Shown here piece after piece: positions 15,374-37,733 of a stretch of DNA of 64,000 nucleotides. Source of the stretch: a phage. The stretch lies in sequence record PV467748.1. One strand, written 5' to 3'. The notes under the pieces were generated by a model. The model ran no database searches and had not been told where the DNA came from. It saw nothing but the letters and a program-made list of their open reading frames with translations. Positions within the stretch are counted from its first letter, which is position 1; each line of letters starts with the position of its first letter. A program made the position numbers and the translations under genes.

Positions 15374-16354
15374 TTATTTCAGAAGTGTAACTTCAGCGAT
15401 TTCGCTCCAGTCATTTTTATCGGTGGCAATGAAGTCCGCCAGATAAAGAGCCGTACGTAATGATACGTTACGAAGACGAGATACATTGGCCTTCATCCAT
15501 GCTAGAGCTTGATAAGTCTCAGCATCAGTCAGACCTCGGTTTTGCATCATATCAGTGGACAGGATAACGTCTTCAACACGAACCATAATCTCTTCATTCG
15601 AGTGAACTCCGAGGTCTAAGTAAACTGAACGAGATACTAAAGCCTGGAGGTGTGGAGCAAGTTTAGTGCCGCGTTCTAATTCACGGTCAATATCAACGTT
15701 GGTGATGAACACGATGGTGCCTTCATATTCGAATTCTTTATCGATATTTTTATCATCGAGGTAAGAACTTGAAGTGCTCCAGCACACCTTACGTTTTTCA
15801 CCGGTATCCAATGCCGCTTTTAACAGGTTCAGGATATCCATATCAGAGAATACATCGACATCATCGATAAGAAGAACACTATTAGGGCCGCGGTTATTCC
15901 AAAGCTGCTCGTAAAGACCGATTCCACTAATCTTTCCGTTGATTGATTTATATTCGATAGTTTCATTTTCGTGGGCATTCTGTAATGCTTTATCCAAAGA
16001 ATACGTTTTACCAATACCTGCGGCACCAGAGATGATAAGGGAACGAATTTTACCATCGATGATTCCGTTAGTCATCATGTTCATTACTTTAAAACGTTTG
16101 TTGATGCGGTGTTTCATTTCTTCAGCGGATTCAGTAACCACTACAGGAGCTTCAGCACCTTCCATTTCAACATCACATTTGAACACCCATATACCACGTT
16201 CAACACCATCAATCTGTACGAATACCTTGCCATCACCGAGGTGAGCTTCGGATTCATGAATTTTATTAGGGAACCAGGTTTTACCTGAACTCATGAACGT
16301 ACCAGAGATTTCATTACCGCGATAGATACCTTTGTTGATTTTGATAGTTAACAT
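15374..16354 (-). CDS. P-loop ATPase (AAA-like core)
   Basis: Track ORF 15374..16477 trimmed to the ATG (MLTIKINKG...) after SD GGAGAATATA; Walker A GAAGIGKT, Walker B VLLIDDVD, sensor-like FITN. Confidence 0.6.
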   Translation of the reverse strand: MLTIKINKGIYRGNEISGTFMSSGKTWFPNKIHESEAHLGDGKVFVQIDGVERGIWVFKCDVEMEGAEAPVVVTESAEEMKHRINKRFKVMNMMTNGIIDGKIRSLIISGAAGIGKTYSLDKALQNAHENETIEYKSINGKISGIGLYEQLWNNRGPNSVLLIDDVDVFSDMDILNLLKAALDTGEKRKVCWSTSSSYLDDKNIDKEFEYEGTIVFITNVDIDRELERGTKLAPHLQALVSRSVYLDLGVHSNEEIMVRVEDVILSTDMMQNRGLTDAETYQALAWMKANVSRLRNVSLRTALYLADFIATDKNDWSEIAEVTLLK

Positions 16355-16359
16355 TATAT

Positions 16360-16422
16360 TCTCCGTTTCACTCAGTAGATTTGATAGGTCCATAATAACA
16401 TGCTCTACGAGGTTGTAAACAC
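16360..16422 (-). promoter_or_regulatory. early promoter cassette (-35 GTTTAC, 17-bp spacer, -10 TATTAT)
   Basis: Plus ...ctcagtagatttgataggtccataataacatgctctacgaggttgtaaac. Confidence 0.55.
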
Positions 16423-16439
16423 TTTTTTGCACTAAACCC

Positions 16440-16462
16440 AAAAAAAGGACCCCGAAGGGTCC
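16440..16462 (-). terminator. intrinsic terminator (GGACCC-TTCG-GGGTCC then T7 on minus strand)
   Basis: Plus aaaaaaaggaccccgaagggtcc. Confidence 0.6.
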
Positions 16463-16686
16463 TAAATTGCGCTCCAATAATTATGGAAGCGGATATTATT
16501 GATAGCCCAGTTAATACAACGTCTTATCTGCTTAGTCGTAGGCTTGCATACGTACTTGAAATTGATTCTTCTACCGGTTTCTCTACAAACTACTTCAAGA
16601 TACCAACGACAGGTTTTATGAGGTCTTCCATATGACAGGAAAACCTTGATTTCTTCTTTAACGGTAATAAGAGTTGTGGTTGTCAA
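16462..16686 (-). CDS. small basic Cys-rich protein (74 aa)
   Basis: Track ORF; four Cys (CRW...C...C...C); overlaps the 3' end of the upstream gene by 29 nt. Confidence 0.35.
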   Translation of the reverse strand: MTTTTLITVKEEIKVFLSYGRPHKTCRWYLEVVCRETGRRINFKYVCKPTTKQIRRCINWAINNIRFHNYWSAI

Positions 16687-17668
16687 GATACACCTCTTCG
16701 ACGAACTTGTCCCAGAACTTCATGTCTACCTTCTCAGGCATACCGTTCTTAGCAGCCTGGATGGCTAGGACTTCAACCAAATCAACAGTATCTTCAAGAA
16801 GTTCTTGAACTTCTTTAAATGGTAATTCACCGGCTTTAATCAGCTTAATGATAGAGGCTTCACGCAATGGGAACACCAGGTCGCCTGTTTGGTAGATTTC
16901 CAACAATTGATACCCTGCGCGATAAGCATGGCTCAGAGCTTTCCAGTCAATACCTTCGTTAGCTTCAGCTTTACGGGCCCGTTCACCATATTCCGCATCG
17001 AGCTTATTCAGAGATTGCTTGAGCTCGATTAAAGATAAAGTAGTTTGGTACTTACGTCCAAGAACAGTATAGAACGTTTGAGGGCCTGTTTTCTCATGGT
17101 TATGGAATACCCATTCACAGAATTCGTTTTCAGGGAGTCGATGTTTGATATCTTCTACCTTAGTGCGACGTTGCTTAGTAGAACCATCTTCTTGATAATC
17201 AACCCACTGTTCAGGAATCTGGTTGACTATTGCCAGTACACCACGCAGAGCAGCCAGACGAGAACCTTTAACACCATATTTAGAAGCTTGCTTACGGACA
17301 TACCCTAAATAGGCTTTCATGTTGGTTGTATAGAACCGAGAACGGTTGTCTTGGATAAATTTCCATACATCAGGTAAATCAGATTTAACCACCATTTCAG
17401 GCGGAGTGTGGAGCATATCCAGAGCAACGGTTTCGCCATCAGCAGCCAGTTTAAAGAAATATTTCAGGCTATAAAGCTCATGGTCAACATCATCTTTAGT
17501 GTTTTTGGAAGCAGTGTTATTCGTGTTCAGGTTGGTATGGTTCATAGCCGTACCTAACAGAATATCACGCGGATGCGGAACAAAGATTTCTTTAAAATCG
17601 ATATCAGATTCCGGAGTACTTGTTCCATAAAGGTGGCTACCGAAGTAGCCCTTCATAATTGTTCTCAT
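16658..17668 (-). CDS. nucleotidyltransferase-fold protein (pol-beta superfamily motif GS-x10-SDIDF)
   Basis: Track ORF 16658..17698 starts at GTG; trimmed to the first ATG (MRTIMKGYFGSHLYGTSTPESDIDF...). Confidence 0.55.
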   Translation of the reverse strand: MRTIMKGYFGSHLYGTSTPESDIDFKEIFVPHPRDILLGTAMNHTNLNTNNTASKNTKDDVDHELYSLKYFFKLAADGETVALDMLHTPPEMVVKSDLPDVWKFIQDNRSRFYTTNMKAYLGYVRKQASKYGVKGSRLAALRGVLAIVNQIPEQWVDYQEDGSTKQRRTKVEDIKHRLPENEFCEWVFHNHEKTGPQTFYTVLGRKYQTTLSLIELKQSLNKLDAEYGERARKAEANEGIDWKALSHAYRAGYQLLEIYQTGDLVFPLREASIIKLIKAGELPFKEVQELLEDTVDLVEVLAIQAAKNGMPEKVDMKFWDKFVEEVYLDNHNSYYR

Positions 17669-18117
17669 TCTTTGTTCTCGAAGTGGATTACAGGACACAT
17701 CTTAGATTTACGAGCTTTAATGTATTGAATAACGATATTTTCTTTAGTTTCTCGGCCTTCACGCTCAGCTTGAATACGTTGCCATTCCTTTTCTTCTCTA
17801 CGGGCATCATACCATGCGTGTAAATTCATCGCACCAAATGCCAAACCGATGGATAGTGCAATAATAAGAGCTATTGTAATCAACCCTAAAGCAAACCCTA
17901 GACTCAACAGAACAGGAGTACTTAATACAAAGAAATGCTCTAATACCCCAGCGCCTGCAACAGTTAATCCAAAAAGCGTACTACCTGCAACAACAGCACA
18001 AGCAAAACAAGCCCAAACCATTTTCCAGAAATAAGCACACAAAGAGTGTGGTCGAGAATGACGGTCATAAAAACGGTCGTGTAATTTAACGTGCCAAGAG
18101 TTTGTGTTGATAATCAT
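17665..18117 (-). CDS. membrane protein (150 aa, about three TM helices)
   Basis: Track ORF with hydrophobic stretches FACAVVAGSTLFGLTVAGAGVL and LSLGFALGLITIALIIALSIGLAF. Confidence 0.5.
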   Translation of the reverse strand: MIINTNSWHVKLHDRFYDRHSRPHSLCAYFWKMVWACFACAVVAGSTLFGLTVAGAGVLEHFFVLSTPVLLSLGFALGLITIALIIALSIGLAFGAMNLHAWYDARREEKEWQRIQAEREGRETKENIVIQYIKARKSKMCPVIHFENKE

Positions 18118-37576: not shown

Positions 37577-37651
37577 TGGTATCCCGCCCTGGGATCGAAC
37601 CAGGACCGCAAACTTAGAAGGATCGTATGCTATCCATTACACCAGCGGGAC
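37577..37651 (-). tRNA. tRNA-Arg (anticodon UCU)
   Basis: Minus-strand GTCCCGCTGGTGTAATGGATAGCATACGATCCTTCTAAGTTTGCGGTCCTGGTTCGATCCCAGGCGGGATACCA; anticodon loop CTTCTAA; T-loop TTCGATC; encoded CCA. Confidence 0.65.
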
Positions 37652-37656
37652 GTAGT

Positions 37657-37733
37657 TGGTGACCCAGACCAGATTTGAACTGGTAACCTTTCCCTTATGA
37701 GGGGACTGCTGCTAACCATTGAGCTACAGGGCC
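37657..37733 (-). tRNA. tRNA with CAU anticodon (Ile-lysidine type or Met)
   Basis: Minus-strand GGCCCTGTAGCTCAATGGTTAGCAGCAGTCCCCTCATAAGGGAAAGGTTACCAGTTCAAATCTGGTCTGGGTCACCA; anticodon loop CTCATAA; T-arm ACCAG-TTCAAAT-CTGGT. Confidence 0.6.

Follow-up and report, generated by a model that had tools for sequence, protein, structure and literature searches.

What a nucleotidyltransferase (NTase) motif in an early phage region stands for, and on which substrate its protein would act, is the question raised by one gene of the phage sequence record PV467748.1. The window analysed here is a stretch of 64,000 nucleotides (nt) of this record, and an earlier note on it, which did not state the strand, had marked positions 16658 to 17668 as a pol-beta-type NTase with a GS...SDIDF motif. 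The interval was found to be filled by exactly one complete gene, stop codon included, on the minus strand (16658..17668). It is the nrdC.11 orthologue of T4, a gene already catalogued, and profile similarity places its product of 336 amino acids (aa) in RlaP (PF10127), a family of RNA 3'-end NTases. Identity, family and fold assignment, taken jointly, are as good as certain. For the function, the reading favoured here, at a probability of roughly 55%, is that the phage enzyme would add a nucleotide to cut RNA ends before they are resealed by a ligase, in tRNA repair, by analogy with characterised members of the family.

The coding sequence (336 aa plus stop) was delimited from the open reading frame (ORF), the identity with T4, PF10127 and PHROG 388. 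Translation from the ATG at 17668 gave a protein with the N-terminus MRTIMKGYFGSHLYGTSTPESDIDF, and this start codon shares bases with the TGA stop of the gene upstream, in the sequence ATGA. The ORF lister had an alternative of 346 aa with a GTG start; the 336-aa reading was preferred because its ATG is equivalent to the start in both T4 and Bp7 and no second Met is present nearby in T4. All full-length relatives in the start comparison had 328-338 aa. The motif was present as the earlier note had described it, at residues 10-25 (GSHLYGTSTPESDIDF, 17594..17641, minus strand), and comprises a G-S loop and the D22-x-D24 metal-binding pair, both read from the sequence. Its spacing is classical for the pol-beta type, with G10-S11 followed by ten residues and D22-I-D24-F, and the product carries the signature of the pol-beta superfamily (Pfam clan CL0260; hG[GS], 9-13 residues, [DE]h[DE]h). 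The motif is beyond chance, as shown by the PF10127 and PHROG 388 scores, the invariant residues and the purifying selection described below.

Comparison with T4 NrdC.11 (NP_049709.1) showed 82% aa identity over 336/336 residues with zero gaps. Megablast returned 480 phage records with the gene, nearly all of them from T4-like phages of enterobacteria, with the top matches to vB_EcoM_IME540 (97.2% nt identity) and Bp7 (96.1%); the proteins of both phages are 99% identical to that of the window. The Bp7 gene is annotated as 'nrdC.11, nucleotidyltransferase' and RefSeq also names a nucleotidyltransferase, so that the gene itself is already known and its product is a near-copy (99% identical) of deposited proteins with that name. 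The protein shares with T4 NrdC.11 its length, its motif, its place between mobD.1 and nrdC.10 and its orientation in the early nrdC-tk cluster. Orthologues of MobD.1 (y05I-like) and NrdC.10 flank the gene as in T4, and over its whole length the window runs collinear with a Dhakavirus-type genome, in the segment gene 46/47 - nrdC - tk - e - tRNA - baseplate. Full-length similarity and shared gene position both place the protein in PHROG 388, the orthologous group of T4. The comparison with the T4 genes at the nrdC.10 and nrdC.11 positions, which the earlier note had proposed, thus resulted in orthology for both (82% aa identity for NrdC.11 and 76% for NrdC.10). The same note had held that a T4 orthologue of known, unrelated function would speak against an NTase; a T4 orthologue was indeed found, but the function annotated or predicted for it involves the same fold. 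Many GenBank and UniRef entries label the protein 'thioredoxin' and one labels it 'HNH homing endonuclease'; it has no thioredoxin features, and these labels look like annotation errors that spread from the gene name nrdC.11.

The whole gene differs from that of T4 by 125 synonymous and 59 non-synonymous codon changes, and as the synonymous differences outnumber the non-synonymous ones, nrdC.11 was considered to be under strong purifying selection. The differences were unevenly distributed: residues 141-240 (window 16949-17248) had 53 synonymous and only 4 non-synonymous changes, and the last 96 residues diverge, with 34 non-synonymous and 22 synonymous changes. Recent recombination with T4 was considered for residues 141-240, where the aa identity is close to 100%, and was rejected because the nt identity there is only 70-92% and the 53 differences are synonymous.

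A search with PF10127 (RlaP, 'RNA repair pathway DNA polymerase beta family') produced a score of 45.1 bits (E 1.3e-11) against a Pfam gathering cut-off of 23 bits. This match spans only residues 7-134 and model positions 24-142 of 249. PHROG 388 ('nucleotidyltransferase') matched end to end, over residues 1-335 (E 5e-134). A profile search among 1.84 billion representative proteins gave 3965 relatives with E<=1e-3, of which 1146 reached E<=1e-30, and the best 150 were nearly all full length, with about 305-360 aa. Conservation was assessed in an alignment of 88 diverse relatives with identities down to 34%, of which 87 matched PF10127. Residues G10, S11, G15, S21, D22, D24, N56, D60, Y131, R230, D241, H247, R250 and P267 were invariant, and D62, D84, K26, K130, R137 and K243 were conserved in at least 90% of the relatives. 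The earlier note had left the place within the superfamily open between nucleotide-signal synthases, tRNA NTases and antibiotic NTases; this is now sharpened to RlaP, with the signal-synthase, CCA-adding and antibiotic NTase models of Pfam, NCBIfam and PADLOC all below threshold.

An AlphaFold2 model built on the 88-sequence alignment had a mean pLDDT (predicted local distance difference test) of 94 and a pTM (predicted template modelling score) of 0.82. It recovered an NTase core, so that the fold called in the earlier note, for which fold prediction had been suggested as a check, was obtained from sequence profiles, from conservation of the catalytic residues and from a confident structure model. 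The N-terminal NTase core (residues 1-134; 17267..17668, minus strand; pLDDT >95) is the sole region that matched canonical RlaP in Pfam and hhalign. In the model, the alpha/beta core of alternating strands and helices extends from residue 1 to about 115 and is followed by linking helices at residues 118-149. Next comes a predicted beta-rich insert (residues ~150-210; 17039..17221, minus strand) with strands at 154-158, 164-168, 184-191, 195-202 and 205-208, a region whose consensus in the 88-sequence alignment is mostly x. The C-terminal half is predicted as a bundle of five helices (residues 213-336; 16661..17032, minus strand), and it holds the invariant R230, D241, H247, R250 and P267. The HEPN nuclease motif R-x4-6-H was absent from the protein sequence, and the bundle is therefore best read as a presumed substrate-binding domain, as in kanamycin NTase. 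Residues 141-240, with the beta insert and the helix that opens the C-terminal bundle, vary most across the wider family and are the most constrained segment within T4-like phages, among which the insert hardly varies.

A candidate for the third catalytic carboxylate was located at D60-V-D62 (17483..17491, minus strand), at the start of the modelled strand 61-67, a neighbouring strand. By hhalign, D62 falls on the Asp that is invariant in the canonical RlaP motif LDxNGWD, and for this reason either D62 or the invariant D60 may be the third acidic residue. The top matches among solved structures were all NTases, namely HalB, 3c18 and kanamycin NTase. No solved RlaP structure was matched when PDB sequences were searched with three queries, namely the protein, the 88-sequence profile and a profile of canonical RlaP, and the top rank of HalB probably reflects the lack of any RlaP structure among the PDB entries compared.

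The NrdC.11 protein and canonical RlaP from Pseudomonas fluorescens (PfRlaP) and P. aeruginosa (PaRlaP) have in common the Pfam family, the G-S / D-x-D / third-Asp signature, the order of an NTase core and a helical C-terminal domain (in NrdC.11 as predicted by the model), and genomic links to RtcB, Pnkp and further RNA ligases. The proteins of the NrdC.11 type are ~60-70 residues longer and have the beta insert. Alignment of the two groups by hhalign placed residues 4-93 onto 39-121 with a probability of 94% and covered the core only; the helical domain predicted for the C-terminal half of NrdC.11 did not align to canonical RlaP by Pfam or hhalign. Since only the catalytic core aligns, the NrdC.11 clade is, on alignment and model, a subfamily of RlaP that has diverged, marked by a beta insert and by a C-terminal half of its own. 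The sequence-similarity network of PMC12776372, which includes T4 NrdC.11 in PF10127 but in another cluster than the Pseudomonas enzymes, agrees with this placement. Both types occur together in bacteria: in 17/80 bacterial and archaeal loci (see below) a shorter gene (255-273 aa) comes directly after the NrdC.11-like one and matches the entire PF10127 model (E 1e-51 to 1e-80). This tandem of two RlaP types suggests that they are not redundant and have distinct roles. T4-like phages carry the NrdC.11 type only, and a six-frame search of the window found no second, canonical RlaP gene.

The family has a history that bears on its function. Nolan et al. 2006 matched nrdC.11 orthologues to the COG3541 nucleotidyltransferase, the first such assignment. 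Burroughs and Aravind 2016 are reported to have coined the name RlaP because the family is associated with RNA ligases. Iyer et al. 2021 reported that the distribution of RlaP in jumbo phages mirrors that of RNA ligases and predicted that RlaP puts back nucleotides that nucleases, RloC among them, have excised. Recently, PfRlaP and PaRlaP were shown to add 1-2 nucleoside monophosphates (NMPs), or deoxyadenosine monophosphate, to the 3'-OH of RNA, with a preference for Mn2+ or Co2+ and with no activity on DNA or protein (Carruthers, Fatma & Huang, bioRxiv December 2025; PMC12776372). In the same work, PfRlaP favoured the broken anticodon-loop end of a cleaved-tRNA mimic over the acceptor end, RlaP partly restored the aminoacylation of a tRNA short of one nucleotide, and the crystal structure of RlaP showed an NTase domain and a helical domain with a positively charged cleft (PMC12776372).

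Gene neighbourhoods were compared at 80 bacterial and archaeal loci with full-length relatives at 34-52% identity, in which all ORFs within 5 kb were clustered. RNA repair genes were neighbours, mostly on the same strand, in 15/80 loci (RtcB in 8, Pnkp in 6, Hen1 in 5 and Ro60/TROVE in 4), and besides the tandem RlaP paralogue they were the only recurrent neighbours. The genes for RtcB, Pnkp, Hen1 and Ro60 are single-copy or rare in bacterial genomes, and for this reason the neighbour counts were read as enrichment. The Pnkp of the bacterial loci is a kinase-phosphatase-ligase, and RtcA and a T4-type RNA ligase were also among the immediate neighbours of bacterial relatives. In some loci the two RlaP types lie together within large operons for RNA repair. 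The gene order was Ro60 - RtcB - RtcA - NrdC.11-like - RlaP - Hen1 in a Nitrosospira locus (L035, 3555-11158) and Hen1 - Pnkp - NrdC.11-like - RlaP in another (L050, 4088-9802). In a viral set of 78 loci, searched with a radius of 10 kb, eight distant phage loci (41-47% identity) had Rnl1, Rnl2, Pnkp or RtcB nearby: Rnl1 and Rnl2 in L155, Rnl1 in L146, Pnkp in L136, L140 and weakly in L151, and RtcB in L152, L153 and L162. The Bp7 genome encodes rnlA, pseT and rnlB. Overall, the subfamily is associated with RNA ligases and end-healing enzymes in bacteria and in other phages, and in T4-like phages the relation is one of co-occurrence only.

From the characterised relatives we infer that the phage enzyme would share the activity and substrate of Pseudomonas RlaP and would act against nucleotide-excising nucleases. 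In such a pathway, a host anticodon nuclease would cut a tRNA and leave a 2',3'-cyclic phosphate and a 5'-OH, and a nuclease of the RloC type would also excise a nucleotide. Pnkp (pseT) would convert these ends to 3'-OH and 5'-P, NrdC.11 would replace the excised nucleotide, and RNA ligase 1 would then seal the break. At the active site, D22, D24 and D62 (or D60) would hold two divalent metals, probably Mn2+, and G10-S11 would position the nucleoside triphosphate (NTP). The RNA 3' end may be held in the cleft between core and bundle, lined by K130, Y131, R137, R230, H247 and R250, for template-independent addition of one or two NMPs to the 3'-OH. This chemistry fits T4-like phages better than RtcB operons, because Rnl1 needs the 3'-OH end that the NTase leaves. 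T4 stays viable when the block nrdC.11-mobD.3 is removed, and dispensability in the laboratory fits a conditional counter-defence gene. If the proposal holds, the Pnkp/Rnl1 tRNA repair of T4 may have a third component, an idea already in the literature: nucleotide removal of the RloC type would render the repair futile, and the third component would let the phage reverse it.

Several observations weigh against this proposal. T4 NrdC.11 itself is listed as an RlaP 'of unknown function' (PMC12776372), and the similarity network of that work separated it (PF10127 cluster 5) from the characterised Pseudomonas enzymes (cluster 1a). In addition, the canonical RlaP profile matched the N-terminal half only, so that substrate choice may differ through the C-terminal half. 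The remaining 65/80 bacterial loci had no RNA repair neighbour, and the neighbour counts are raw counts with no background control. Finally, T4-like phages showed no adjacency, and rnlA, pseT and rnlB of Bp7 lie >80 kb from nrdC.11. The missing adjacency to a ligase gene would also be expected of an RNA 3'-end NTase uncoupled from ligation, which might, for example, restore 3'-CCA ends that were trimmed or damaged on tRNAs of the host or the phage, or add tails to RNAs and so alter their stability. Such a role would fit the tRNA genes of the window, and it would fit the characterised members, which label cleaved tRNA but also tRNA and rRNA of full length and discriminate little between NTPs (PMC12776372). 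It is nevertheless unlikely, since ligases and end-healing enzymes are what recurs beside the subfamily, PfRlaP prefers the anticodon-loop break to the acceptor end, and no PolyA_pol or related Pfam match for CCA-adding enzymes or poly(A) polymerases was found at E up to 1.

The structural likeness to other two-domain NTases brings up further substrates. Kanamycin NTase/ANT(4') and the MNT-HEPN modules share with NrdC.11 the plan of a minimal NTase and a HEPN-related helical bundle, and the phage protein could by this plan nucleotidylate a protein or a small molecule, as MNT antitoxins AMPylate HEPN toxins or as aminoglycoside NTases act, for instance in host-toxin neutralisation. These systems have antibiotics or toxin tyrosines as substrates and have no family-level sequence match to NrdC.11, which, unlike the MNT-HEPN modules, has no R-x4-6-H motif. 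The only NCBIfam match, to the MntA antitoxin NTase model (NF047752), reached 16.2 bits against a cut-off of 60 and covered 18 residues (8-25) at the motif itself, and no Pfam family of antibiotic NTases (ANT, KNTase) matched. Canonical RlaP labelled no E. coli proteins (PMC12776372), and the neighbour evidence favours RNA repair, which together make this explanation quite improbable. The synthesis of a free oligonucleotide or nucleotide, as a signal or decoy that manipulates host defence in the way of HalB or CD-NTases, has in its favour the top structural rank of HalB, probably an effect of the PDB entries compared, as noted above. HalB (PDB 9dbh/9dbj) has 13% identity to NrdC.11, with no relationship at the level of sequence; it is a protein of 217 aa that makes oligodeoxyadenylate in host defence together with the HalA membrane channel. 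No conserved HalA-like partner accompanies NrdC.11. No Pfam match to CD-NTase/SMODS signal synthases was found, and the sole PADLOC match was one of 15 bits on the motif. As RlaP addition requires an RNA primer and ends after 1-2 nucleotides (PMC12776372), signal synthesis is very improbable.

The divergent C-terminal half, together with the side-by-side occurrence of the two types in 17 bacterial loci, gives rise to a related idea, that NrdC.11 types may form a structurally distinct clade whose own C-terminal domain yields a different product or substrate. Were this true, the enzyme could, for example, make short primer-independent oligonucleotides (HalB-like) that keep decoy- or signal-guarded defences such as Hailong off; the chance of this is slim. 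A decayed, non-catalytic remnant with no enzymatic role would agree with the viability of the T4 deletion under laboratory conditions, and its probability is negligible given the invariant catalytic residues, the strong purifying selection relative to T4, and the presence of the gene in 480 phage records and thousands of relatives. Among these possibilities, nucleotide addition before ligation in tRNA repair was retained as the preferred reading.

The earlier note had further placed the gene in a defence-facing region, next to a Cys-rich small protein and, after a terminator, a P-loop ATPase. The arrangement itself was found as described, with a small four-Cys ORF, a terminator-like hairpin and the Walker A P-loop ATPase NrdC.10. 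The term 'defence-facing' would apply only in the sense of the counter-defence RNA repair proposed above, and it does not extend to the neighbours, which are not conserved partners: no relatives of the window neighbours were found beside the 80 bacterial homologues, and comparison of NrdC.11, the membrane protein, NrdC.10, the DUF7279 protein and MobD.1 with the PADLOC defence models yielded nothing above noise. For these reasons the neighbours were treated as context and not as parts of a system.

Upstream lies the gene of a 150-aa membrane protein (phrog_944; 17665..18117, minus strand), in which two or three segments are hydrophobic; the overlap of its TGA stop with the ATG couples it translationally to nrdC.11. 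In T4 its place is taken by the homing endonuclease gene mobD. A pair of membrane protein and NTase similar to Hailong was considered and rejected, because of the mobD gene in T4 and because of the bacterial loci, where no relatives of the neighbours occur; both facts also speak against the signal synthesis discussed above. Further along the window, genes for tRNA-Arg(TCT) and tRNA-Met(CAT) lie adjacent to each other on the minus strand (37577-37733), at the expected position of the T4-type tRNA cluster.

Downstream, the NrdC.10 orthologue (15374..16393, minus strand; phrog_1250) is a P-loop (AAA/STAND-like) ATPase. It has a Walker A (GAAGIGKT), a Walker B-like stretch (LLIDDVD) and a weak C-terminal similarity to helix-turn-helix domains, and its Pfam matches to AAA_14, AAA_22 and nSTAND were weak and below cut-off. 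Its start is uncertain, at 16393 or, by analogy with T4, at 16354. The gene is paired with nrdC.11 in T4 and in the window and unpaired in bacterial relatives. Between the two genes, the window differs from T4 by an extra ORF and terminator. The ORF of 74 aa (16462..16686, minus strand; TTG start, four Cys) overlaps the 3' end of nrdC.11 by 29 nt and is a member of a real family, DUF7279 / phrog_8921 (DUF7279 E 6e-12). Directly after its stop lies a strong intrinsic-terminator-like hairpin, AGGACCC-TTCG-GGGTCCT followed by T6 (16446..16463, minus strand), and a promoter-like site with an extended -10 is present at 16419-16392 (minus strand). Together, the ORF, the hairpin and the promoter-like site make up an insert of ~230 nt (window 16380-16700) that is absent from Bp7, in which only 30 nt separate nrdC.11 from nrdC.10. 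The insert has 99.7% identity in phage fDHCT2 and 84-97% identity in other Dhakavirus-type genomes.

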